Shown piece by piece: positions 1 to 61,677 of a DNA stretch of 64,000 nucleotides. Origin of the DNA: Ginglymostoma cirratum (Eukaryota); assembly GCA_024137785.1 (NCBI GenBank), contig JAHRHZ010000288.1, positions 7,910,820-7,974,819 on the forward strand. The letters are read 5' to 3'. Every line of letters starts with the position of its first letter. Positions within the stretch are counted from its first letter, which is position 1. The position numbers and the translations under genes were made by a program. The notes beneath the pieces are model-generated. The model made no database searches. It was not told where the DNA came from and saw only the letters and a list, made by a program, of their open reading frames with translations.

Positions 1-624
1 CCCATGATGGGCCGCCATGTTCATGTTCATGGGGCCATAGCTGTGTAGCTGGGTCGAGGCGTAGTGGTCCGATCTGGGACTAGTAACTTGACTGTACTGG
101 TCTGCTCTGCCATACATGTCCCCAGAAAAACCTAAGCGCATTTGGCCGTTCATTACATGTGCATTGGGCGATGCGTGACTGGTCGCCTGCTCGTGAAGAC
201 CCGGGAAGAGTAGGTGCCCCGCGGCGTCAGTATGTCCATGAGGTCCCGCGAAGCTGCCTGCAGCCGCTGCCGAAGCGAACAGGCTGTGGCCGGCACTGGC
301 CGCCGCCGCCGCTTCCCCGAAGCCCCGATTGCGAAACAGAAAGTCCCGGGTGGAGTTGAACGCTGCGCTGCTGTACGAACTCACATGGCTCGGATGGTGA
401 CCCAGAGCAGCGGCGTAGCCCGGAGCCTGCGACGTGAAGGCTGTTTGACCCGATGCGAGATCGTGGGTGCTAGGGCTGATCTTAAAAGCACCCATCCCGT
501 CAGCGAAAGGATTGATCCCCAGCCCTACTTCTCGGTCGTTGACATCGCCTGTTGAGTGATGTCGAGATGAGCCGAAAGTAGTCACTCCAAGAGTAGGATA
601 TTGAGGTCCAGCGTCCAAAAGCAT
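1..624 (-). CDS. ZIC1: Zinc finger protein ZIC1, 5' part of coding exon 1 (continues beyond window start)
   Basis: Reverse complement from CAT at 622-624 reads [23 protein letters not shown]...[14 protein letters not shown]...LLFPGLHEQ...[19 protein letters not shown]...[10 protein letters not shown] with no stop. This is the characteristic ZIC1 N-terminus with the ZOC motif, divergent from ZIC4. Confidence 0.97.
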
Positions 625-1220: not shown

Positions 1221-4200
1221 GAAAGAAGAGGAGGGGGTGGGGATGGTGGTCGTGGGGTGGAGTGGGGGGGGTGGGGGAGAGAGACGGACAGGAGAAAAGA
1301 GCGAACTGAAGAGAGGGAGAGAGAAAAAAAACTCTTGTCTTCCTCGACTTCACAATTCAGTCACCCCTTGTCAGACTGTTTGAAATTCGTTCATGTGCCA
1401 CAACTCCAGACGAGAGAAAAAGCGGGCGGCTTCCTTTGTTGTTCAGTAGCTTTTTGATCGCCGGTGAAAATTCACTTACCCAGATGAGTGAGCAAAGAGA
1501 GAAAGAACACTCTTTTGAATTGGGTTCAGAAAATGCATATGTTTGGATTCAGTGCAAACATACAACACTCGGTTGTTTTCGAGACGAAACCCTTGATTAA
1601 CCTGTCTTTCCCCATGTAAAAAGCGATTGAAAACATCTTGCTTGGGCCTTTTTTTTCTCTCTAAAGTGACAATGAATTGCTCTATACATATCTATAGGCT
1701 CCCAAACAATTGCAGAATAGCTGCAAGTAAGGATTTCCCCTTTTTTAAAAAAAACGTTCGGTGCTGTTTTCATTGATTAGAAACAAAGGAAGCGAAAATG
1801 GTTTATGGATACTGTCAGCTGAGAAAAACGTAGCTCCTTTCCACATCATGTTTTAGATTATTCCTTGCCACTCACAACCCCAAATTTGCTAAAGTCCATC
1901 TTCTGTGTTTCTACAAAGTAATTTAATTATTAACGTGAGGCCAATAGTTTGCATATTCATTAAGTCTAATTATATTCTAGTAAAAGAAACGTAAAAGCCA
2001 ACAAAGAATCGGAATCGTTCAATTTACCTTTTGTTCACCACTTCAATGAGTTTCCTTGAAGCTAAGTCTATGTTAAAGTCTTATTTTATAACAAAGAAGC
2101 CTCAACGGATCCTTTAATAATTATCTCCGTTGGTGAACTATCACTTCACAAGGATACAGTTTAAAATAGTTTCCCTGTTTCCCGATCCCTGTCTTCCCAA
2201 TTCAACTCTTTCCTGGTCGAACATCACATTTATACGAACATTTGTGCACGCTTACTTTTTAACTATTTTCTAAAGGTTTCATGTCAAAGTACAACAGGTT
2301 AACTCAAGAGACAGAGGGGGAAAAAAGACTATTAGCGACAAACCCGGCGGTTTAAATGACTTTCTTTGGATGATCCAGTTGCGGTTATATTTTACAGTTT
2401 TCCCTCAAGAAAGCAAGTTTAACGCTAAATGTTGGAAAACTGAGGGGTTGGGAGGGAGGAGGTGTTGACGTTTGAAGTGTGGCAACAAATTATTTTAAAA
2501 ATGGGTAACTTTTTGGCGAATGGTTCTAATTTAAGTCGATTTGATGTTGTGCCTACTTTGCTGATGAATTCCAAGCGTCGGTTATCTTATAAGGAATTAC
2601 AAGTGTACATTTCAGGTACTTTAATCATTTGGAATCATCTTACGTGAGGGTATCTCTGCAGTTAAACTGGATCTTGCGATGCATCAGAACCCCACGCTAG
2701 TTGTGCATATAATGAAATGCTATTTTCCAGCTTCGTAGTGTATGTGCTCCCTAAGAATTAAATGGAACGCGATATTGCCTTGCTGAGTGAGTACAATAGC
2801 TAACATCATAGCATTGCTTTAAATGATGTAATATGCTGAAAACATGGATATTAAAATCACAGCAGTCGAGGAGCAGAAGCTGGAGTAATTTGATTCAAAA
2901 AGATTTACTGCTCATTTGAAAGTGTGTGCAAATTCTAAAGGGACACTTAAAGAGTATGAAAAGTAAACGTTTCCCTTAGCATTATCTTTAGGCTACATCT
3001 TCAAACATACAAAGAAGGGCTGATTTTAAAAGTTGTGGGATGGTAGAAGTTATCAAGTGGGATTTGCGGCGCTCTCCGCAGGAAACGCAGGCTGCTTGAG
3101 TTCAAAGCCACATGCACCGACGTGACATATAAGCCATTAAAATATCATCCTGACGGCTCATTTCTGCTTCATCATACATTCCCTAACTGCTTCCAGAAAC
3201 CTTGAAAAGGAGAAATGAAGAATGACTATCTAGGCAAAGCTACAAAGTAGATTTTTTTTGACTTCGAAGTTACCTGAAATAAAAGATCGAAGACATCTTC
3301 AACAGGTGGAGGACGGTAAGGGAGGCACGTGTATTCAAGTGACTTTTTAACTAAACGACTCCTGACCTCTGAATTTCCATCATCTTTCATGTAAATGCAA
3401 TTGACTAAAAAGAGAATAGAGATATCAGTCAGATTTTTTTGTTTCCTCAGAATAGCCCTTGTCAGGGGCCATCATGTTGCAATAAAAGCAAACTAGGTGC
3501 GAATGGCTCTGAATTATGCATTTCCATTCGAATGCATTTGTGTGTACTGATATTTTCCCTCGTATTGTTTTCAACCGATGGATAGCAAAGCATTTAGTTG
3601 CTCTGTGAAGGGAGGATGGTGGGGGAGGAAATATTTGCCTTGGGGTTGAAGTGTTAGTTTACAAAAGGAATTTTTCTGTGTAATTTAAAATTCTGCCTAT
3701 TTTCATCGAGTCTAATTTAAATTTTAAATTTGATTTATATCTCGAAACGAAGTTAATCATTCAATCGTTTATTTGTGATTAAGATAGAACGTTGCTGTCG
3801 CTAAAGTGTAGCTTCACTTCCTTTACTTCCACCTAACGTGGGTTTTATGCATATTTGAGTCCAATGCAAGTCCTTAAAAACGTGAGCTAAATAACGCGTG
3901 CCCTCTGTCCGCGTTCTGCCGATAAACAAATGCTTTCGGATATTGAGGTAGTGAATTGGAGTATGCATCCATGGTCCCTATTTCCATGAATGGGATGCCA
4001 TTTAACTGAATTTAATTGTAATGCAAAAGTTATGTTGCAAATTTGTTCCTAATGACTAATCTTAATACCATAAATTTAATTGATATCTTTTTTTCTACGC
4101 ATGATTTTCATAATTGTTTAAAACTACCAATATTAAAAGTCAGTGTTGAGTTAGGACTACATATAGGTTCGTTTCAGTGAATTAGATGACGCTTAGTTTA

Positions 4201-13322: not shown

Positions 13323-14487
13323 ATGAGCATGGATGCATTGGGGAGTCAGATGATGGACCCATCATCATTCGCCAAACGAAACCCAGCGCTGAGATTAGTA
13401 GATCTGGCAGGAGCTCACAACCATCATCATCACCATCCCCCTCAGAATATGACAGGTTTCCCGGGGCTCAGCGGCCATCCCCACTCAATGGCACACACGC
13501 ACCCTGGGGAGAATACTGGAGAACCCCGCCTGGGGCCGAGTCCTTTCGGGCCTGAACACATGGGGCACCCTGCAGCCGCCGCTGCACTTAAACTCAGCCC
13601 AACCCATCCCCACCACCATCACCTCCATCATCATCACCATCATATGGCAGGCCACGCTGAAGTTGTCTCCAATCCCACGGCAGCGTTTGGCCCAGCGCAG
13701 GCGGCAGCAGCAGTCAGGTACTCGGTTTCGCATTCCCACGCCAGCTACACTGCCCAGACTATCTCGGCAGGTAGAGATTTCCTCATCCGCAGGGATTTGA
13801 CATCCTCAGTAATGCCAGGGCTCACTGATCAATATCCCGGCACAAGTTCTCACCACGGAATGTTTGTATCAACAACAGGTAGTTACCCTGGACACCATGG
13901 TCACCCCGAGGCTGGGAACCACTCTCTATTCCCTGGACTGCATGACCAGCCTCCCCTTGCAGTCCCAGCTGGACACCATCTGAACGGACAGTTAAGACTG
14001 GGGCTACCTGGAGATATGTACGCCAGGTCTGAGCACTACAGTCAAGTGGCAAGTTCCAGGAGTGATCCTTTTGCCTCTTCCCCTCTACATGGCTACGGTG
14101 GCATGAATATTAACATGAACATAACTGGCCACCACGGTCCAGGTGCTTTTTTTCGCTACATGAGGCAACCCATCAAGCAGGAACTGATCTGCAAGTGGAC
14201 TGAACCGGACCCTGTCACTAAAAAACCATGCTCAAAAACTTTTAGCACGATGCACGAACTGGTTACTCACGTAACAGTGGAACACGTTGGGGGACCAGAA
14301 CAGTCGAATCATATCTGTTTCTGGGAAGAGTGTCCACGAGAGGGAAAGCCTTTCAAAGCCAAATATAAACTTGTAAATCACATCAGAGTCCACACTGGCG
14401 AGAAACCATTTCCCTGTCCATTCCCTGGCTGTGGCAAAGTCTTTGCCAGATCAGAAAATCTCAAGATCCACAAAAGAACTCACACAG
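13323..14487 (+). CDS. ZIC4: Zinc finger protein ZIC4, first coding exon (His-rich N-terminus, ZF-NC region, zinc fingers 1-3)
   Basis: ORF contains [30 protein letters not shown] and [17 protein letters not shown]...KIHKRTHTG. It ends at the phase-1 donor ACAG|GTCAGT (intron starts 14488). The ORF tail to 14663 is intron read-through. Confidence 0.95.
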
Positions 14488-17400
14488 GTCAGTACTTTCG
14501 AAGGATCATTCTATTACCTGCTTCTAAATGCATTTTCGTTAATAAAAGCTGTTTTCGGTCTATTACCAGTGGGACAAATACACAGCGAGCCAAGGGTTTA
14601 TGTGGCTTGGAAAATAGCCGATTTTTTTTTGTTGCAGCATTTAGGGAAACCACACAGCTCTGAGAACTTTGAATTGCTCTGGGTAATAAATAATGCATAA
14701 TGTTTTAGCTGTAAACAGTCTTCTGGTTACAGATAATAAATCTGCTCTGATTCAATTTCGACTGAAATTAAAAGTCACTAGGTTTCTCCCTTCAGCTGCA
14801 GTTAAACGTTGTTGGAAAGCATGACGTTTAGCTCTCAGTGGACACTATTTTAAGGTTAAGTCAATTTCAGTGAAAGCTTTTACAGATGGCGAAGAATTAT
14901 TAAGAAGAGCGTTGTCTATTTTGTGCTGTTTTTGTTTTGTTAGGATCCACAATCAAAAATATAATAATCACGTTCTACATTATCACTCCAAGTGTCTACG
15001 TACATCCTAACCTATTCGGTTTTCATGTTTTTAAAACAAAAACAATCCAAACATTTTCGACGCTTAGAATTAATGAAAGCAAATTTTCAGGCCTACGTTC
15101 TGAAAGAAAAAATGTCATTTGCAGAGCCATTTGAGAAACTGGGACATGTGTCATAAACATCTGCTAGTTCCACTTAGCAGCAAGTAAATTCAGTAGATCG
15201 AAGCTTGTTCAAAGCTGCTTTTGAACTTCCCGAGCCAGAATAATCCATAAGTAATGCAACCGCAGAGATGAAATTTCCCACTCCTCAGGATATATTAAAA
15301 AAAAGTCTGCATTAATTGAGCTTGCAGCAGAGGTTCGATACGTCGCGGACTCGCTCTCTCATTGTCTGTTGCCTGCCTTGTGCTCGACCTTGCTCAAGTA
15401 GTAAACATTTAAGGCAAATTCTACCCCCACCCACCCTTCACCCAGAACTTCTCCTCAAAAGGTTGGACATATTTCAGTTTTATGATCAATGGTGTGGCAG
15501 TGAAACATGTTCCTCTTGTTTCGTCTGCGTCCCGACCAGCGTTGGCCGAGCGAAGGTTTGGGAATGGCCTAGTGTTTGGGGGGTGTTTGGGGGGGAGATA
15601 CAGTGGCTTGTCAAATGGGTAGGTACAATATAATCTGAGGCACTTTGCTACGTGTAAACTTTTCAAAACTGCCTGCTTGTATTTTCTTTTTATTTTCCTG
15701 CCTCAACTGTTCCCTGTTACAGAACTGTGCAATGACGGCTGTATTTTTTTGCTGAATTGAATTGAAATGCATTGTCAATGTACATGGTATCTAGGAGAGA
15801 TTTGTAGGCCTCTCTATAGCTGGGAATCTAATCTTAATTTACATTCAAAACATATTTTCCTTTACTCTGTCACTTAAACATCGCCGATAGCACTAATAAA
15901 ATGTAACACTTGGTTTAAAAGGAAAATGCATAGTGACACAGGCATGTGAAATGGATATTCCAAAAGAAATGTATCACGGCATGAATGCATTAGGTTTCAT
16001 ATTTTTAAACAGTCGAATGTATAATACATACAAGTGTATCTGTGCAGTGGTTGCTGAGCAGGCACACTGTATGTGTCCAACAACTGATAGCATTGGCCTA
16101 AGCAAACTTTCCCAGCACTTCCAGCGACTTCAGCTCAGCGATAAAGAGTGATAAGCACTTAATTTGAGAAGGAAAATAATTCATTCGACCGACATTATTT
16201 CTATTTATTTTAAAATGTTATAATATCAAATAAAACGAGCTGTGTGTTTGGTAGCTTCGACTGCATTCATATGCCCAGTATTTCAGTTAAACAACATTCT
16301 CCATATGTTGCAATTAATCACCTTAAGTATGATAAATATCGCATTTCTCTTTTAGTTTAAAACTGCACACACTATTGTTACTAAATTCTTAAATAAAAAA
16401 TAGCAAGTATAGTAATTCTATTAACAAAGTAATTATGTTGTAAAATATTGATGTCATTTGATTGGCTTCAGTCCTTTATAGGCTAGTTTTATTGAATTGA
16501 AATCCCGTCCCTTTTACATTATTTATTTCAACAAGCATGGAAAGATTGCCTCTGGGTAAACAGAGACTTCAGTAGTTTTGTCACCTCACATAAAATATTA
16601 CCGTATGAAGTCAAAATCTAGAATTTAGCATGTATGTTTAAAGATTGATTAGAACGTGCAAACAGCTCGTCGAGTTTATCACCAGGTAGGTATCTTCTGC
16701 GAAGTTATGTGATGCAAAGTTTAAATTCAATTTCATGGAGGGTTTCTTCGACTGATTCATCTTAGCCAGGACTGAGCTAACTGGTGAGATGACAACTAAC
16801 AAGGATTGGTCGCAGTTAATCTTATATTACTCACTCCTTTATACACAGCATTAATAGTAAAGAAGGAGAAATGTGTAGCCAGAAGGAGTTTAGAACTCTC
16901 GGGAATTGGCCAAGCAGACTTCACGCTCGCAGTGTCGGACGCTCCAGACACGGCACAATAACAGTGTTTATGAGTCTGGGCTTCCCCATGGGTCCACTAA
17001 CTTACTACTAGCTTGTACTACACTAATATCGTTGATTGGCCGTCTCAACCTAGCAAGTGAAGGTCAAATTATTCTAACGGCTTTCTGAACGTTTGGCTAA
17101 TTACGGTGTAATGTTAAATCGACATTTGGAGAGTTCGGTGAAGGGTCTGTGTTACAAAGCACGTAGCCTTGCACTGTATTATGCTTACCACAGACATGTA
17201 GTTTTTAAAACAAAATTGAGAATTAATGATATTTTAATGTTCATTAGAATAATAACCATTAGAATAATAATTGAAAACTGGAAAAAAGTTTGTTATTTCC
17301 CTTCCCCGCTGTTTCAGAAATCCATTGTAAGTCACTTAGAGCATGTAACTGCTTCTTGGGCCTTTGGGTTGAGACTAACAAGCAGAAACCATTACGTCAC

Positions 17401-17600
17401 AGCAGATCTGCAGGAACGTACCTGCAACACTCCACTGCAATGTCATTGCTCTAAGTAGCTAAAAAAAAGATTTTTTTTTTGTCTGAAATACGTGTTAGTG
17501 ATTAAGTTGCATTTTTAATACGGGATAACAATGTTAGCAATGAAAGATAATACCTGAACGTTAGTGAACTCATCACTCTGCCATTGTCGATTTCTTTCAG
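14488..17600 (+). other. ZIC4: ZIC4 intron (GT-AG, phase 1)
   Basis: GTCAGT donor at 14488 and TTTCTTTCAG acceptor ending 17600. Splicing restores the HTG-EKPF linker in frame. Confidence 0.93.
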
Positions 17601-18037
17601 GAGAAAAGCCCTTTAAGTGTGAGTTTGAAGGCTGTGACAGACGTTTTGCTAACAGCAGCGACAGGAAAAAGCACTCGCATGTGCACACAAGTGACAAGCC
17701 CTATAACTGCAAAGTAAGAGGCTGCGATAAATCGTACACGCACCCGAGTTCCCTTCGCAAGCACATGAAGGTCCATTGCAAATCTCCACCCCCCAGTTCG
17801 GGCTACGAATCCTCCACCCCTTCGCTGGTCTCTCCTTCTTCGGACTTAGGTCGGGACCCCCCGGCTTCAGCCTCCCAGCTTGACCCCATCACGTCTTCCC
17901 ACGCAGCTAACCTGAGCGAATGGTATGTGTGTCAAAGCACAGGAGCAAGCGGTATTCCAACACCTCCGAGCAATTCATCATCACCTGGACCAGGGGAGCA
18001 CTCTTACAGAAACTCTGACCCCAGAACTATTCTCTAA
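17601..18037 (+). CDS. ZIC4: ZIC4 second coding exon (zinc fingers 4-5, Ser/Pro-rich C-terminus)
   Basis: [58 protein letters not shown]...[10 protein letters not shown] is typical of ZIC4. Stop TAA ends 18037. Joined CDS is 1602 nt, 533 aa. Confidence 0.95.
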
Positions 18038-18990
18038 CCAGAAACTTGGCCAAGAATCCGCAATTTTTTTTGGGAGAAAAGATACATACTGACTAATGCT
18101 TTGTGATGGTGTTAGCATTGCCATTGCTGCACTGGACTTGGCGAAACTACTTGAGTTTCTGGAGGCCTAGCGCCGAGGAACATAATGTAATGCACTGGCA
18201 TACGAAAAGACAATAACATATTAAAGAGAAAGTATCCTTAATGTAATCTTGCACATGTTGCAGTTTACAGTCAGGAATGTGTGTCTTGAACAACACAGAA
18301 ATTCCGTTCACATAAAGTGCTGCAAGCATAAAGTATTGTTTCCACAAAATGTTGTACAAAGAAAATCATTGTTTCATTTCTCGTTTTTACCTTTTTTTGT
18401 GGAAGGAAAATGCACTGCTGTATCTATTTGTTAAGAAAGTACGTTGCAATTCTTTCTGAAAGCCAGAAGGGCGAAAGCAGATATTCCCTACACCTGATGT
18501 GAATAGTAATGAACAAAAGCCTTTGTAGGCCAAAACAAAATGGATACTGTCTCTTCAAAAGCCTGCTTACCCTTTGACTTTTTAAAAACATTTCTGCAAA
18601 CTAGATTTTCGATGTTAGACTTTTTTGCGGAATAACGCTGTAAAAATATGTGAATATAGGTATAGACGAATACAACGTACATCTGTGTTAAGTAATTCGT
18701 TTACATTTTCTCTCTGCTTTGTTTTCCTTGAAATAATTTATTTAAAATGTTACAATAAAACACATTTTGTATAAATGACCCAAAGTGTTTATTACAGGGC
18801 GATTAAGACAGTGCACATTTTTTTTATTGGATTATGTTAAATAATTAGCGCGTGTTCTGTAAATTATAGTGTTTTATAACTGGAAGTTTTGACTATGTAG
18901 AATAATTTTCCTTATGTATTTCGACCCTGTTTTGATATACATTCGTACCGGTTTGCAATAAATTGATAATGATAGAAATACTGTTTAAAA
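18038..18990 (+). other. ZIC4: ZIC4 3' UTR with candidate polyadenylation signals
   Basis: AT-rich sequence after the stop, with AATAAA at 18754-18759 and 18957-18962. The true 3' end is not determinable. Confidence 0.55.
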
Positions 18991-19846
18991 TTTCTCAAAG
19001 ATGAGCCATTTGTCGTTAAAATACATCGTGAAACATCAGTTCCGTCTTATCTCCGTGACATATGTATTTAACCACTACTGAGGAGCAAGCGCTAACTCAT
19101 TGGTCTAGTCTGTTTCTTTTTGTCGTCAGGAGCAACAAACAATGTAGAACTTATGATTTATACTACACGCACGTTTCGTTTTAAATAAAACACATGAAGC
19201 TCTAACATCGGCGAAGCGTGTTTACCTTTTGTGGAACCTTTAAAAATTGTTGGTGAAGAAGTTATAAGACCGACGTATTGTTACGGTGAAACCCTACTAT
19301 TTAAGCAACAATCGTTGGAAAGTGTACTGAAGTCACATTGTACTTTTACTAATGTACGAATGGACTGTGTATAGTTTATAATCGTATTGTCAGAATTCAC
19401 AAGTAAATGCGTCTTGTAAAAATAAATTTTGTAAAATAAATAATACTGTCCGTTTGTCAAAATTTACAATGAAAATCTAAAGCACGCAGCTGCCTACTAC
19501 CTGTTAGAAGCTTACAGATAGTAATTGATAAATATCAATGGATGGATAGGTAATATCTAATTACGAAGATAACCAGAAATGTATACGATTTTGTTTTGCG
19601 ATTAAACAATGCATAAAACATTTATTCAAAACAAAAAGAAAGAAGTGATAAACCACTATTGTGCAAAAGAAATTTAGATCCAGTTTACTACAAATATCCC
19701 CATCTGGTGCACTTGACGAATCAAATGTCTCAATTTGGCAAAATAGTTATCTTTTGGGGATTTCATGAATTGCAAACAACTTTACTGGAATCCAAATAAC
19801 AATTCATGACTGAAATATGAAATATTTCACTTTCTCTTGCCATTCC

Positions 19847-19997
19847 NNNNNNNNNNNNNNNNNNNNNNNNNNNNNNNNNNNNNNNNNNNNNNNNNNNNNN
19901 NNNNNNNNNNNNNNNNNNNNNNNNNNNNNNNNNNNNNNNNNNNNNNNNNNNNNNNNNNNNNNNNNNNNNNNNNNNNNNNNNNNNNNNNNNNNNNNNN
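19847..19997. other. Assembly gap (151 N)
   Basis: Run of N. Confidence 1.
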
Positions 19998-20792
19998 TTT
20001 GGCATTAGCGCTTGGCGTAACCTAGTTGCTTTCTCTTCACTTTTTTGTGATATGGGGCCTAGCAAATGGGGATATAACGTATTGCACAGTAAGGGGACGA
20101 GGTTGCTATGCAAGATAAATAAAATGGGGTTAATATATTCGTTTCTCCCTCAGAGAAAGCCTAATCTACTACGTATATATTCCAGTAAAGTCTGGGCAGC
20201 TGTGAAAAGGTATTAATAATCCAATCATCTTTTCCTCAGTTTGCTCTGTTGCACGGCCAGTGACTAAGGTCGTCTGACTTCCTTGACAGTTTATTAAATA
20301 AGTTAGTTTTTCTTTCTTTCCTTAATAATGTTTTGCCGAGATCCGGCGCAGAAAGCATTTGTGAGCCAAAATAAAAGAAACCGCGAGAAGAAAATTAAAA
20401 TAGAGGACAGACATCTTCAGAAAAGACGTGGCATCCATTTCTGACAATATCCAAAATTCACGTGAAAGATATGGAAAGCAACCGAAACTTTTATCGATAA
20501 GCATAGAGAAAGGCGATGAAACAATGGAAGAACAATGAAACCAATAAAAGTTGAGTAGAAATACCGATAGCAAAGTTTTTATTTATCGTAATCTGCTTTT
20601 AAATCAGATTGTATGTCGTGTGTTACTTTTGCTGCAAAGCGATAACATTAACGAAATGAACTTTCGGGCAGTTTCTAAAAGTTTTGGGAGTCTTAGAAAA
20701 TTAAGAAAAGTAATTTTAGACGCAGGTTTATAAATGGGATTCATTGCGATAGGTAGTGATTCACCTTAATTTTTTTCATTTACTTGTTGCAG

Positions 20793-20915
20793 ATGTCCAT
20801 CCAGTTGCTATAGGTAATCCAAGCAATCACAATTCAAAAGACTGAATATCCTCGTGGAGACATCAAAGCAGAAAAATCTACAAAGAGTATTTCTTCGCAA
20901 CGGTGAATCTTCACG
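20793..20915 (+). other. ZIC4: Candidate alternative downstream ZIC4 exon
   Basis: Strong acceptor TTTTTTCATTTACTTGTTGCAG ending 20792. The first base A completes TGA with the TG before the internal donor at 17923. Donor-like CACG|GTGAGT at 20916. Confidence 0.6.
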
Positions 20916-23900
20916 GTGAGTTAGGATTTCTATGGCAATAGACAAGTCATACTTAAATACTGAAAGCCAAGTCTGGAGCTAGTGCAGTCTTTTCATCAAG
21001 AACGGAATGTGTACGTCTTAAGGACCATATGTAAGCAAGTTTGTATATATATGGTGATATGTGTGTCTGTATATTTATGTAAAATTTATAATACGTATAT
21101 TATATTTTACGGTGTGCAGCTCATTGTTACTTAAGGTTCGACGCCCCAAAGAAAGAACTCACGCGAAACATGACTTATGCCAAACTCCAGTAACACCATA
21201 AATAATATCAGTGGCCCCAGCTCCTGCTGAAAAAAGAAGACGGTTTGAGTTATCAGACTGTCAATTAAGTTTTTATTTCCTGTTTCCTCCCTGATATAGT
21301 TAATCAGGGAGCGAGTTAAACTTTCCATAAACTTTTAAAAGGTCGAGAGATCTCCCCTGCCCCCAACCCCACCTCCCCCCCCCCAACCAAACCCCAAAGA
21401 ATGAGAAAGAAAATAAAAGACACAAGGCCTCTAATCAGACTCGGGCTGTTCAAAGAGCCGGGTTTTAGAATTCCAAAGTAGGATTTTTATGGTACATCAG
21501 CACCGCACGCTAGGATCGCTATGGTAATGAACGGGGCAATAGCAAACTGCCTTCAAAGGAGGCACACTAGATTCGAGACACTCTATTAAGATACATTTGC
21601 GTTGACCTTTGGTTTCATGCTAGGTTAGTACAGTCAATCTTCACTTCATCATAATCTTTAATATTTTGAGGTTGGGAGGAATTCTCAGGCGGATTAGGGA
21701 TGGCCTGAATCAAACTGCTTGGCTCCTCGGAGAGGGAGCCCAGCAGGTTCGATCCCGACCCTGTGAGCAGATAAGTTGGGAATTCGTCTTTTAGTAATTG
21801 TCTTGTTGTTTATTTTATACAAGTACCCAGTGAATGGCGAAAAATAAACACAGCGAAAAATAACCAAACAGTCGAGTCCTCTTTAGTGAAAACTCTTGTG
21901 GCCGAATAAAAAGGATGGTACATTCTCTATTCAGGGCAGAAGTCTTTGAAGTGGGAGTTATTATCTAAGGAATTCTTCCTTGTCGTCTTAACGACGCTGG
22001 CGAAACGGAAAGCGTTCTTTGTCAGCGATTTGTTCTCCTCTCTGTCAAGCGTTTTCTGTCCGTTGGTTCTGAACCGTTTCTAAAGAGATAAAAGATGGAA
22101 AGACTTGTATTACTACCTTGAGCAGACAGGACAGTATTAAAACTGTTGCTACATTTTAGACTGAACCGGCAATTGTGTTGATGTTATGCTGTTGTCACCT
22201 GTTCAAATTCCTGATTCAAACATTAGCGTTCTACCGAAACTTCAAAATGTGCAGAACGGTTAGAATAAGTCTTACAGAAACTGAGCGTTGACATAAAGAG
22301 TTACTGTGTTAAAGTTAAAATCAGAGGATAATTATTTGAGCTTCCTGTCATTTCTGCGTGCACAAAATGAAAACATCCTGCATTAAACTCGATCCTTTTG
22401 TTTTCTTGCAGCAATGCAATATCAACGTTGAGAAACGTTCATTAACAAATCTCGGCTTCTGCATTTCAGACTCCTGCACGGTCGCCATTTTGTTCAATGC
22501 AATTTTCTATAGTTTTGTGTTAAGGGCTAGTTGCAGCAATCTGCATTAGCCAAAGGTATCATATTTGCTCCTCTTGTTTCAGTTCATCGCCCTTTTCCCC
22601 AGTTCTACCAGCAAGGTAGTCTTCTATTCGCGTGATCTTTCAAAATCCGTTATCCAATTTTTTTTTAAAGTTGGAGGGACAGAAAGAAACTTTATTTAGC
22701 AGTGCGTTCAAAAGTGCATCCTACCATCACAATAACATAGCCTGCATTGGATATGAAACAAAATTACCAGCGCCCCTAGTCCTTTTTAGTACACGGTGTC
22801 AGTTGGCGCACGAGTTAGAACAGATCACTAAAATGTTGCTGTTTACTATCCCTGGACGGATTTAGGGCCGATTTCTCCGGCGTAAATGCATTTCCCTCTA
22901 ACTCTGCAATCGCTTGAAGTGTCTGGGTCTTTTGTTTGCTGTTCACTTTTTGATTATGTCGGGTTTTTCCCCCCAAGAACACGGCAAATCGGCACTATAC
23001 AAGAAGTGCGAGGCATTACATTGCGCCTGACACCACTAAAAAAGGAATCTTTTAAAAAGCATTCAACCTGAAACAGATTCTTTCAGCCGTTTTTTTCACA
23101 AAACCTTGTTTAACAATATAAGCCAGTTTTAATTAAACTATTCATAGCTCTATCCCTATCGCCTTTAAAACTGGCCACAATTCTGTCCTGTTAGTTTCCA
23201 TGTTAAACTCCACACTAGGTTAGGTCCCTAAAGAAACAATGGGCATCTAACTTTTAATCATGGATTCTTTCAGCTGGGATTATTATGGCATCACATCGCA
23301 AATCAATCGTTTCCAAAATTGTGCGAATTGTCAGAGAAATAAGTTAGCAGCCTACGCTGTTTCGTAAATAGTTGGTTCTCAAATGTTGCAGACAAGTTGC
23401 AATTTGCAGGAAAGCAATTTTCTAATGAATTCATTAGCATGATTACAGAATTTCGTCCATAGTAACCCTCCCTCACCACCTCCCCCAACATCCTCCACCT
23501 TCCTCATTCCCCAAAAGTCCTGGAAGCGTTTCTTATTGCGCACGGACGTTCAGAATCTTTGCATTGAAACCTCGGTCTTGAGCAAATAATTTATTATTGT
23601 CAATCAAGTCGGAAAGAATTATTGGCAGTTACATTAAATGCAACGTCGTTCGCAATAAAATATCATAATGGATGGGGTAATCACATCGAATTGCAATCAA
23701 AAATGGGCGATATTTATTTTAATCGTCAAGTCTTATACATACTGATTACTGTGAAGTTTTTTTTCCTTACAATAGTAAGTCAGAGTATGTTGACAGCAAG
23801 TCACTTAATGTAGATGTTTAATGACTGCGAGGTGGTGCTGGCGGAGAAGAGGGGGCGGTATTTCCTTGTGTAACTATAAATGAAACACACAGAAAAAAAT

Positions 23901-45612: not shown

Positions 45613-48600
45613 CCCATAACTCCCCCATTCGCATGTGACACTATCTCTGAGGAATACTTGGTCACTAACCGTATTGACTGGTCATTAAGACTTGAATGTT
45701 CATATACTTCATTTAACAATGGAATTATTCTCTCAGATCGGGAGTGGTGCTCCCTCCTTTTGTACAACAACATTTTAGTTTTTGTTCCCATCAAACATTT
45801 GACTTGATTGAACAAACCATGCACGGGCTCCATTCCAGATTCGCATGAACTCCGGGCGTGTTCTTGTGTTTGTCGGATTTTTTTTTTCAGATTCTAACAT
45901 TTCCCATTCTTTCATAAAACTTGAAAATGAATTTTGACCTTACAAACTGCATAATTTCTAACCATAACAATAAAATGGTGCTTAAAAGATCTTTGTGGAT
46001 CGTTTTTGAATCGAAACGATTCAAATTAATTTCGTATATTTGAATGTTCATTTTGAGATTGGATGTTGTAATTATGAATCACGATTCGTCGAATGAAATT
46101 AGTAATGTCGATTAATAAAACTGACTAGTGGTTGTCAGTGAATGGAATGACAAATAAAACCTTTCTTTAGTGAACAGACCCGACTTGGTGTTAGATCCAT
46201 CATTGGGCATTTATTCTTGCAACTTACTTAGGGGGACAAAAAAGTGAAGATAATGAAAGAAGCGTTTGCATAAAATTCAGTTAATGGGGGGAAATAATGT
46301 TTTAAATATTGGACCTTTAAGACCACCTATAAATTCTCGAAAGTATGGCGCCATACATCATAAAGCAATAAAAAGGTCAGGTCCACCAAACTGCACGTGT
46401 TTTTTTCCCCCCATACATCTGAGGTCTTCATCTCCAGGTTAAAGATGGTATCTCCTATTTTAACGTTTAGGGTAAGCCATTCCAAGTTTCCACGGCAACA
46501 CCAGTGGCAACACGTGCTCATTACTCTACACTAACCAATCAACCCTGTGGTCTAATCTACTGCCCCTTCAAAGGGTCAAACCAAGTTCTTTTGCCCAAAC
46601 CAAGCCCCGGGCATTTCTGCTGTAACACACAGCCCATTCTGTTGAGAAGACAACTGATTTTCCGCAATCTATTCAATGCATTTAGTGAGGTTATTACAAT
46701 TAGCAGGAGCGAAGAGAAAGTTTGCTGTAGTAAGAGATCTAATTAATCCGGAAAAGGCGATATTTATAATAATGGCACTCTAGGATTTCTTGATGAGTTT
46801 CCGTAACAGCTAACCGGCTTGACACTAGCTGAGAGATGGGCAGTTAACAGATTAGCATCTGCAGTAGTGAGGATAGTGATAATGAGTGGAGAGCTATACA
46901 CTTAACAGAAACGGCTGCCATAAAATGAACAAGGAAACGTGCAGTCTATAAACTGTTTCTCTCCCTTAATCAATCAAATAACTCATTTTATATCTTCCAT
47001 ATTTACATAGAGGGGAGTAAGGTCTCCCTGGAGTATGGCAAAACATCAGAGCCACAGTATGTGTGTCGTAAATATCACCTGTATAAATATCTCGAGCAAA
47101 TCTGACGCAGACTTGATTTAGATAGAAAAATAACAATCTGATGTTTTAAATGCTGATCCTGCGTGGCTAGTTCCCACCAAAGCAAAATATTTTCCAACGA
47201 AATCCCTAAGCCCTGTGTATTACTCTCAAGCGAAAATAATCACGTTTCTCCGATGAGTTAACACTTTAAAGCCGAAAAAGGTTTTTATTTCAATGAAACA
47301 ATTTGCCACACTTTCTCTGTGTCTATATGTACACACAGGGACAACATCACAGAGCACAAAGCGGCCAAGCTATGTATAGGACGCATGAATCATGGCTGCA
47401 TTTATAGCGTATTCTCACAGTTCTGAAAAGATTAATATTCGCTTTAAAAATCACTGACACACTTGACCCCAATAAGGTCAGTCGCCAACAAAACTTCAAG
47501 TGATTTGAATCAAGATTGAATTGACTTCAAGTAATTGATTGGAACTTTTAAAAAGGAATCCTAACACGATGCGTGTCTCCTATGACCTCGTTCTAAAAAA
47601 AAGAGAGGGGGCCGTGGGGATGGGGAAGACCAAAAAAAAGTGAGCGAGGAAATGTTAAGATTTATTAGATTCCGTTACATGAAAGATTCTTTTCATTTTG
47701 CATTGAGTACTAGACGCTATTGAAGCCTGCCAGGTAGCACATGTGCACACAGAGGCGAGGTCTTTTTAGTTTGGATCCGGAGGCAGCGCCCTTGTCATCA
47801 GGGAGTCCAAGCAGAGGGCGAGGCGCCTCAAGGAACCGCCGTGACTCCAACAACTTTCGCTCACCTCATTTTTATTCCTTTTTTTTTGTATTTTCTGACC
47901 TCAGGCAATAAACAACACTAAGAACCCTGTTAATCGATGAAGTAAAGCAGTATGTTACAGACTAAATATGAACTCGCTGAAACTTTTTTTTTGTAGAAGG
48001 ATAGACGCTTTTAGGAGAGTTCCGTGGCGGGTTGCTTCGGATGTCAAGTTGATGAAAATGCACAGACGCGATAAAACGACCAGTCGGGTTGACTCTGGTG
48101 CTTAGTTAGATTTGGGCAGGGGTGGAGGCGGTGGCGGGGGGACGGGGGGGGCGGGGTTGGTGGTTGGAAGGGGATGGAGGTGGGGGACAGAAATTGAAAC
48201 ACCAACATCTAAAGTCAAGTTTTGTACTTCAGGAAGACCACTTTGGACACAGATAGTGTCCATTTGGGATGGAGTAATTATCTTGGGGGGAGGGGCGTTT
48301 GGAGGGTCTTAAAAACACCGATTCGGTTCGTAATATTATAAATACACATAATTAACAGAACAAAACTACCAGTTTACAATGTTCACATTCTTACAGGGAG
48401 GGACGCCGGAGCATCAAATAAACATTCAAACCTGCTCCCCACCAAAAAAAAAACAATGGCGATAATGATATTGAGACAAACTTTTCAGAATGATAAGACT
48501 CAAGAAATCTAACATACTTTGGGGGCATAGCATATGCGTTGAGGAGAAAGTGAAGGAGAGGGGAGGCAGGCTCGTTAGGGTCTCGGTTATTTTTCATTGA

Positions 48601-56377: not shown

Positions 56378-57540
56378 TAGAATTTTACAGTACAGAAGGG
56401 GGCCATTCAACCCATCGTGTCTGTACTGGCTCCCAGAAGAATTACCCAGCTAGTCCCATTCTCCAGCCCTATCTCCATAGCCGTGTAAACTCATCGCTTT
56501 CAGATATATAGCCAGCCCTCTTCTGAAACTGCCTATGGAATCCACCTCCATTATTCTCCCAGACAGAGCATTCTGAATCTGAACAACTTTCTGAGTGAAG
56601 AAATTTCACCTCTACTCATTCCTAGCTCTCATGCTGACAACCTTGAAATTGTGACCCCTAGTTACTGACACGCCAACTCGTGGAAACTGAACATTCTTAA
56701 TAAAAACCCAAAGAACTGCATATGCTGTAAATGAGAGACAAAAATATAAATTGCTGGAAAAGCTCAGCAGATCTGGCAGCATCTGTGGAGAGAAATCAGA
56801 GTTAATGTTTTGGTTTGAGTTCTGAGGAAGGGTCACTTGACCCGAAATGATTTCTCTCCACAGATGCTGCCAGATCTGCTGAGATTTTCCAGCAATTTTA
56901 GTTTTTGGCTGTAACAGAATATCCTTGTTTACCCTGTCAAAATTGTTCATAATTCTGAACAACTCAATATGAGCACCTCTAAAACTCTGCTCCAAGGAAA
57001 ATGAGCCCAATTTCTCTAATTTTTTCTTGTATTTAAAATCTCTTATTTCAGATATCATTCTAGTAAATCGCCTTTAAACTTTCTACGCGGCTTTAACATC
57101 CTTCATTACATAAGGTGGCCGGAACTGAAGATTCCAAATGTGGTCTCACCATTGATTTGTGGAGGTGTAATATCTTGTTTTTATACCCCATGCCTCTATT
57201 TATAAACATAAGGATCCTATTAACCTTCTTTATAACTGTTTCAACTTGCCTGGCCACTTTCAGAGAATTATGCATTTGAACCTCACGGTCTCTCTGCTCC
57301 TGTACTCCCCTTAAAGTTGTACCATTGAGCCTCGAAAGTTTCTCTGTGTGTCTTCTACCAAACTTATTACCTTACGCTTCCCAGCATTGAAATTCATCTG
57401 CCAGATGTCTGCTCTTTTGACCAACTTGTCAATGTCTCTCTGAATCACTCAGTGTCAACCTCACAGTTTGCATGTTATCATCTGCAAATTGTGAGATTTT
57501 GCCCTCAACACACGCCTCCAAATCATTTATTTATTATCCA
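56378..57540 (-). mobile_element. Degenerate CR1-clade LINE, 3' fragment (interrupted at about 56690-56910)
   Basis: Minus-strand peptides KSMVRPHLE, LEKLGSFSLE and TRGHNFKV, plus KFADD-encoding sequence near 57480-57490. CR1-type 3' tail near 56380. Multiple frameshifts. Confidence 0.88.
56690..56910. mobile_element. Palindromic Penelope-like insertion with hammerhead-like core
   Basis: Inverted arms 56748-56798 and 56848-56898 match at 50/51 positions. The spacer contains CTGAGGA-A-GGGTC-ACTT-GACCC-GAAA. Confidence 0.7.
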
Positions 57541-61056: not shown

Positions 61057-61677
61057 TAACAAGCATGGGGCTGGATGAACACAGCAGGTCAAGCAGCATC
61101 ATAGGAGCAGGAAAACTTGACGTTTCGGGCCTAAACGTCAAGTTNNNNNNNNNNNNNNNNNNNNNNNNNNNNNNNNNNNNNNNNNNNNNNNNNNNNNNNN
61201 NNNNNNNNNNNNNNNNNNNNNNNNNNNNNNNNNNNNNNNNNNNNNNNNNNNNNNNNNNNNNNNNNNNNNNNNNNNNNNNNNNNNNNNNNNNNNNNNNNNN
61301 NNNNNNNNNNNNNNNNNNNNNNNNNNNNNNNNNNNNNNNNNNNNNNNNNNNNNNNNNNNNNNNNNNNNNNNNNNNNNNNNNNNNNNNNNNNNNNNNNNNN
61401 NNNNNNNNNNNNNNNNNNNNNNNNNNNNNNNNNNNNNNNNNNNNNNNNNNNNNNNNNNNNNNNNNNNNNNNNNNNNNNNNNNNNNNNNNNNNNNNNNNNN
61501 NNNNNNNNNNNNNNNNNNNNNNNNNNNNNNNNNNNNNNNNNNNNGGAAAACTTGACGTTTCGGGCCTAAACGTCAAGTTTTCCTGCTCCTATGATGCTGC
61601 TTGACCTGCTGTGTTCATCCAGCCCCATGCTTGTTATCTCGGATTCTCCAGCATCTGCAGTACCTTTTATCTCTGAT
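61057..61677. mobile_element. Perfect-hairpin Penelope-like insertion with a 17-bp flanking direct repeat
   Basis: 69-bp perfectly complementary arms (61057-61125 and 61568-61636), flanked by ACAGCATTAACAAGGGT at 61041-61057 and 61678-61694. Confidence 0.8.
61145..61544. other. Assembly gap (400 N)
   Basis: Run of N. Confidence 1.

Follow-up and report, generated by a model that had tools for sequence, protein, structure and literature searches.

Composite terminal exons let one gene end in two ways, and the switch between the secreted and membrane heavy chains of immunoglobulin M (IgM) is of this kind. The scheme is set out in PMC2926593 and PMC4227790. At exon 13 of FLT1 (sFlt1), a 5′ splice site that can be skipped is set against read-through and intronic polyadenylation, giving two C-termini (PMC2926593). 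In FosB/DeltaFosB, part of a terminal coding exon is treated as an intron, and the splice makes a truncating stop (PMC1952174). A ZIC gene is also among the related systems: in ZIC3-B, a conserved extra downstream exon replaces the end that bears NEWYV (PMC3157443). The poison exons of the SRSF genes are short non-coding exons with conserved splice sites, which bring in a stop (PMC13223760). Here, we analyze 64,000 nucleotides of the shark Ginglymostoma cirratum (assembly GCA_024137785.1, contig JAHRHZ010000288.1, positions 7,910,820 to 7,974,819; hereafter, the window), which are the ZIC1/ZIC4 locus of this animal. The last coding exon of ZIC4 is, in our judgment, probably a composite terminal exon with two outcomes, one of which would build a stop codon across a splice junction. 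The feature is real and of a known kind, and its splicing mechanism is ordinary.

ZIC4, a gene of brain development, is encoded by the plus strand; its coding exons span 13323-14487 and 17601-18037 and give a product of 533 aa. A donor (GT 17923-17924) sits within the Trp codon of NLSEWYV, and the acceptor AG at 20791-20792 is followed by A; the junction 17922^20793 thus joins TG to A to make a TGA stop, and the product has 495 aa instead of 533. These coordinates, the junction codon and the loss of 38 aa, which an earlier note on this DNA had proposed, are confirmed by the window sequence. The alternative intron measures 2870 nt and spans a gap of 151 N, hence its real length is uncertain; the assembly gaps in the window are at 19847-19997, inside this intron, and at 61145-61544. 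When 922 GT and 874 AG sites were ranked with approximate matrices, donor 17923 came eighth and acceptor 20792 fourth. The elements of the switch are as follows.

13323..14487, plus strand: large coding exon of ZIC4, from the ATG to HT-G, with zinc fingers 1-3 (protein match, zf_ZIC); donor GT at 14488.
17601..18037, plus strand: coding exon for the final zinc fingers and the complete C-terminal tail of ZIC4, closed by TAA at 18035-18037 (533-aa form).
17920..17928, plus strand: internal 5′ splice site ATG/GTATGT, GT at 17923; its use in tetrapods is suggested by their stop, Cys and Trp endings.
17921..18034, plus strand: 38-aa tail WYVCQ...TIL, removed by the splice; a whale read-through tail aligns at 54% over 26 aa (E 0.005).
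17923..20792, plus strand: alternative intron, which is also the coding tail and the proximal 3′ untranslated region (UTR); 2870 nt including the 151-N gap.
20744..20792, plus strand: pyrimidine tract and CAG acceptor (rank 4/874), with predicted partial pairing with 20744-20759.
20793..20915, plus strand: downstream exon of 123 nt, whose initial A completes TGA; seven placental ZIC4 gene models contain a homologous exon of 123 nt.

The locus has two features of a composite terminal exon: a 5′ splice site that can be skipped with open reading beyond it (read-through is annotated in 82 of 125 ZIC4 entries) and, further downstream, an exon with its own 3′ splice site. In contrast to composite exons such as that of sFlt1, the long ZIC4 protein results from read-through and the short one from splicing, and the downstream exon gives a single coding base. 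The first ZIC4 AATAAA is 831 nt away from the donor, farther than the median of 238-355 nt given in PMC2926593. As in DeltaFosB, a splice leads to a stop and a truncated protein. However, in FosB the stop comes after a frame shift inside the terminal exon (PMC1952174), whereas the 2.9-kb ZIC4 intron covers both the normal stop and the candidate sites of proximal polyadenylation and ends at a separate exon; the two splice sites do not share one terminal coding exon, the acceptor being 2755 nt beyond the normal stop. In ZIC3-B, the whole of exon 3 is skipped, zinc finger 5 is changed and about 49 residues are gained (PMC3157443). The ZIC4 event instead keeps all fingers, starts from an internal donor rather than replacing the whole exon from the donor of the upstream one, and adds zero residues. 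Unlike the stop of the SRSF poison exons (PMC13223760), that of ZIC4 would arise at the upstream junction, with onward splicing no more than a possibility. The annotated tetrapod ZIC4 proteins that finish in ..(N/D)LSE (22 entries) have the same end point and almost certainly the same donor.

Those proteins come from a survey of ZIC4 endings. Three protein searches yielded 168 representatives, from which 10 unnamed, 30 ZIC5-like, two hemichordate and one unclassified entries were set aside, leaving 125 named ZIC4 entries. The counts cover the representatives of 90% clusters, which are database annotations, not reads. Read-through via WYVC was found in 82 entries, an end at SE in 22 and continuation with Cys in eight; one more diverges after WYV, and 12 have other ends or fail to reach the site. 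The short end of entry P0032 was judged to be a frameshift and excluded from the stop forms. All SE endings are tetrapod (22 of the 83 tetrapod representatives): one caecilian, one lizard, five birds, three monotremes or marsupials and 12 placentals. In the five SE-ending proteins measured, 104-107 residues of the last-finger exon are retained. Three further entries may be recorded here. The eel ZIC5-like gene model P0112 stops matching after NLNEW, as if a codon-forced donor (see below) were used in ZIC5; it is one of 30 such entries, and a hypothetical model. The duck entry P0074 is labelled ZIC4 but ends in a ZIC5-like tail and was grouped with ZIC5, and the elephant shark entry P0110, a divergent ZIC without EWYV, was left unclassified.

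Stop, Cys and Trp correspond to TG followed by A, Y and G, respectively, and the endings alternate between close relatives (Bos/Bubalus, Pseudorca/Tursiops, Herpailurus/Puma, Corvus/Agelaius and Pogona/Varanus). This mixture therefore points to a splice after TG and not to a genomic nonsense change, and the SE ends of tetrapod ZIC4 are, judged from these annotated sequences, almost certainly made by splicing. The proposal that the mammalian ..SE end is a splice product at the Trp codon is thereby borne out. A genomic mutation of Trp to stop, with the shark sites a coincidence, would likewise yield an SE end; yet among the 36 placental representatives, 15 read WYVC and seven read Cys at the Trp codon, interleaved among close relatives, and such a mutation would leave the homology of the downstream exon unexplained, so that it is extremely improbable. 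In the 15 placental read-through tails, where WYVC is present in 15/15 by selection, residues past the donor are conserved as well (Q 13/15, G 14/15, A 12/15, G 14/15 and P 13/15). Therefore, mammals still encode the tail. The human reference junction probably lies between c.1004 and c.1005; the gelada protein, which implies a 316-nt exon, fits this position.

The second line of evidence is the downstream exon itself. Among the 36 placental entries, eight gene models enter a downstream exon, translated as (D/N/Y)VHRVA...FFAT, and seven of these extend to VHLH before diverging with G, E, D or A. The flanking residues of the seven point to phase-1 borders, an initial A and 2 + 120 + 1 = 123 nt in total, and the shark segment 20793-20915, of equal length, starts in the D-V-H frame and finishes F-F-A-T-V-N-L-H-G. 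A codon profile was built from the seven models, the eighth (P0149) being omitted since it leaves the exon early. When the exon was cut into fixed 15-nt blocks, three of the eight ranked 1, 3 and 2 among 127,972 window positions, in register, and the five middle blocks were unremarkable. The gapped alignment scored 24.9 against a null of -27.9 ± 8.5 (maximum -4.9, n = 146 random segments), and the local gapped profile gave only a modest excess (score 31.8; the highest of 40 shuffles reached 28.3). In plain tblastn, with matches listed for two of the eight queries, the best match of P0128 was at 20882-20920 (E 0.014), and P0149 had none at the exon locus among the matches listed. The shark copy has stops in two frames, one of them the frame translated by the mammalian models, and internal indels; the conservation is therefore at the nucleotide level. 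Taken together, 20793-20915 is very probably the orthologous exon, as far as sequence comparison can tell. The relation of the window exon, up to 20915, to a mammalian ZIC4 downstream exon was part of the earlier note and holds for placental models with first base A; of the human 3′ UTR that it gave, the exon-side part, up to 20915, agrees at the codon level with these models. The first base suggests that the homologue of this exon is also the one joined in mammalian SE-ending mRNAs. No gene model can display that join, because the join ends translation. Eight other mammalian and bird tails after Cys were tested, and apart from the two known matches none aligned convincingly to the window.

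The 3′ side of the exon and the surrounding processing signals include the following elements.

20913..20921, plus strand: strong 5′ splice site ACG/GTGAGT, GT at 20916 (rank 2/922), where seven mammalian models leave the exon.
20804..20940, plus strand: predicted RNA hairpin enclosing the 20916 donor, in which 20804-20820 pairs with about 20925-20940.
18754..19440, plus strand: candidate proximal poly(A) hexamers (AATAAA) at 18754, 18957, 19184, 19421 and 19435.
21412..21910, plus strand: candidate distal ends, the first AATAAA motifs after the downstream exon, at 21412, 21843 and 21905.

In the explanation that we favour, skipping of the donor in the Trp codon would lead to read-through via EWYVC to the exon's own stop, with polyadenylation inside the intron and a 533-aa protein. 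Use of the donor would join TG to the A that opens the exon at 20793 and end the protein at NLSE after 495 aa, without the conserved C-terminal motif. Judged from the sequence of the locus and its relatives, it is quite likely that this shark uses the 17922^20793 junction. With its stop straddling the junction, and so inside the 50-55-nt limit (PMC13223760), the short mRNA would escape junction-dependent decay provided that the downstream exon is terminal, and the predicted hairpin masking the 20916 donor would favour such terminal use. The donor at 17923 would be a free by-product of the older EWYV peptide, which is present in hemichordates; the downstream exon would be the added part, already present in the ancestor of sharks and mammals. 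Within 18038-20792, AATAAA occurs eight times against 3.7 in shuffles (P about 0.03). The earlier note had named 18754 and 18957 as the proximal poly(A) sites; the motif is present at both, but they are not distinguished from 19184, 19421 and 19435.

The 123-nt exon may be a terminal exon or a poison exon, as it ends in a strong donor within a predicted hairpin. If donor 20916 were used, the stop would lie 123 nt upstream of a junction and act as a decay signal, and the exon could then be mainly a poison cassette, spliced onward from 20916, with nonsense-mediated decay (NMD) tuning the dose of ZIC4. Consistent with this, the exon is short and conserved and has both an acceptor and a donor, and the donor, the exit point of seven of the eight mammalian models, scores above the constitutive donor of ZIC4 (9.8 against 8.6 bits). 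Downstream, acceptor 22411 is the top-ranked one within 14489-30000 and a candidate partner for it, and a distance of 123 nt is greater than the 50-55 nt of the decay rule (PMC13223760). Against it, the 55-nt rule often fails for introns in 3′ UTRs according to the same source, 22 tetrapod entries list SE-ending forms as protein-coding, a search for a conserved further exon found none, and the 20916 donor is almost wholly paired in the predicted fold (unpaired probability 0.1 or less over GTGAGT). We regard the poison cassette as improbable. The fold of segment 20793-20945 has -43.6 kcal/mol and a z of -5.5, with none of 200 shuffles as stable, and the minus strand gives a z of -1.6. In a fine scan of 5250 windows, with shuffle means estimated by regression, this hairpin was the second-best locus after a long inverted repeat; a coarse scan of 841 windows missed it because the windows cut through it. 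A smaller predicted hairpin covers the acceptor tract (z -3.1, 2/200 shuffles as stable). Rfam returned two weak matches within 17900-24500, both far under the gathering score, and no known structured RNA family there. Other strong acceptor-like sites on the plus strand are 19129, 20153 and 22411, and two further segments, 46273-46422 and 21913-22062 on the plus strand, have folding z values near -5 in the fine scan.

As for the protein, NEWYV is stated to be conserved in all ZIC members except ZIC4, and the ZIC1 C-terminus appears to be negative-regulatory; when ZIC1 lacked the final 11 residues, 66% of embryos were disrupted, compared with 8% (PMC4564895). By analogy with the ZIC1 truncations, the short form of ZIC4 is probably de-repressed, and carrying the effect of the ZIC1 C-terminus over to ZIC4 is a step from one paralogue to another. 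That the junction toggles a repressive motif is a possibility to which we give slightly less than an even chance.

Several observations weigh against the composite terminal exon with a shared, functional splice. All four codon choices for E-W-Y-V yield a donor (6.5-7.7 bits), and acceptor 19129 within the intron outscores 20792 (12.9 against 11.2), while acceptor 20153 would likewise make TG+A. Conservation of the middle 75 nt of the exon is not significant (39 of 196 random segments do as well), the ungapped whole-exon profile was not the top one (z 4.1), GC-rich regions scoring higher, and the mammalian exon is known only from prediction-like gene models that reach it from other donors. The hairpin is the thermodynamics of one sequence, with three other loci scoring nearby. 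C-terminal missense changes elsewhere in the ZIC1 tail have a similar effect in Xenopus (PMC4564895), so the assay is not motif-specific. Finally, the SE ending is found in none of the 42 shark, ray-finned fish, lungfish and coelacanth representatives, of which 41 read through and one is frameshifted.

Regarding the splice sites, the strength of donor 17923 or acceptor 20792 taken singly is not beyond chance. Donor 17923 alone proves nothing, because the E-W-Y-V codons force a donor, and the EWYV motif is also present in 28 of the 30 ZIC5 entries and in both hemichordate entries. The earlier note had called the pair a good donor and a strong acceptor; the ranks agree with this, but the donor is forced by the peptide and rival acceptors exist at 19129 and 20153, and splice-site strength was consequently rejected as evidence. 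Acceptor 20792 is raised above chance because the exon that it opens is homologous to a mammalian exon. The peptide-forced donor, the mammalian EWYVC tail that is still encoded and the strong donor 20916 in its predicted hairpin had been overlooked.

The distribution of SE endings raises the alternative that 20793-20940 is an old conserved element, an enhancer or a 3′ UTR RNA element, which became a splice target in tetrapods only, sharks and bony fish making the read-through form alone. The counts of 0/42 non-tetrapod against 22/83 tetrapod representatives agree with it, the donor exists without need of selection, the locus has other conserved non-coding blocks (3023-3241), and the hairpin reaches past the 123-nt exon. 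In contrast, a shark pyrimidine tract with CAG and a near-consensus donor sit exactly at the homologous ends (ranks 4/874 and 2/922), and the 123-nt spacing is the same despite internal indels. Cluster representatives, moreover, favour long forms, and in clusters formed at 90%, a 533-aa representative would probably conceal any 495-aa prefix. An origin of the splice in tetrapods only is therefore rather unlikely in our view. The suggestion that the mammalian C-terminus is an ancient jawed-vertebrate isoform accordingly stands in part: the mammalian SE end is splice-like and the exon is homologous, but SE endings are confined to tetrapods among cluster representatives.

The assignment of the locus rests on the ZIC-type C2H2 finger array, whose top matches are ZIC4, the closest being Scyliorhinus ZIC4 isoform X1 (about 95%; 94.6% for the large exon), and on the divergent pairing with a second ZIC gene, matched by tblastn on the minus strand at 1-240.

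1..624, minus strand: 5′ part of ZIC1, head-to-head with ZIC4 (tblastn 1-240; start of the open reading frame judged by eye).

The name ZIC1 for this gene is our assumption, in keeping with the description of ZIC1 and ZIC4 as a gene pair in PMC7403390. A mouse non-coding RNA adjoins Zic4 (PMC2722021). Between the two genes, 3023-3241 on the plus strand aligns at 66% over 74 aa with a pigeon ZIC4 model, in its N-terminal extension; the shark sequence contains a stop and changes frame. Judging from this match, the block is a conserved 5′ exon or element that is probably non-coding. No copy of the amniote MR(H/Y)K mini-exon, which comes next after the counterpart of this block in birds, was found in the window. 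At the N-terminus, a mirror case is seen in 27 named amniote entries with a short upstream exon, most of which join the large exon near S-Y-P-G-H and lose about 185 residues; at this join site in the window (13876-13882, plus strand), CAG and TAG are present and the pyrimidine tract is poor. At 56736-56910, a 63-nt inverted repeat with 92% complementarity lies within a 152-aa minus-strand frame, which had no match in Pfam and which we presume to resemble the end of a LINE ORF2. A scan for bacterial promoters and terminators was empty and is irrelevant here.

The short tetrapod form is already annotated in databases. In the ZIC literature searched, no description was found of the short form as a splice product, of its link to the missing NEWYV motif or of the exon being traced to sharks, although a prior mention is possible. 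The comparisons indicate that ZIC4 never lost the motif; rather, the splice removes it, and 15 of 36 placental representatives still read it. An exon shared by shark and mammal, the probable completer of the stop codon, would explain why human ZIC4 alone seems tail-less. A more far-reaching model is that jawed vertebrates have had, since the split of sharks and mammals, a structure-controlled three-way switch at the 3′ end of ZIC4: a full tail that is repressed, a splice-built stop that is de-repressed and mimics the ZIC1 truncations of craniosynostosis, and further splicing that leads to decay, the ratio being set by hairpins over the acceptor and donor of the exon. We consider this model speculative and unlikely as a whole; if it were true, mammals would make an unstudied ZIC4 bearing EWYVC, and the codon-forced donor could act cryptically in ZIC1, 2, 3 and 5. 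The short and long forms of ZIC4 provide a natural pair without and with the motif for studying its function. Assays with the human ZIC4 coding sequence of 1005 nt (PMC7403390) probed a single isoform, and variants at the 17923-type donor or in the 123-nt exon could alter the end of the protein.

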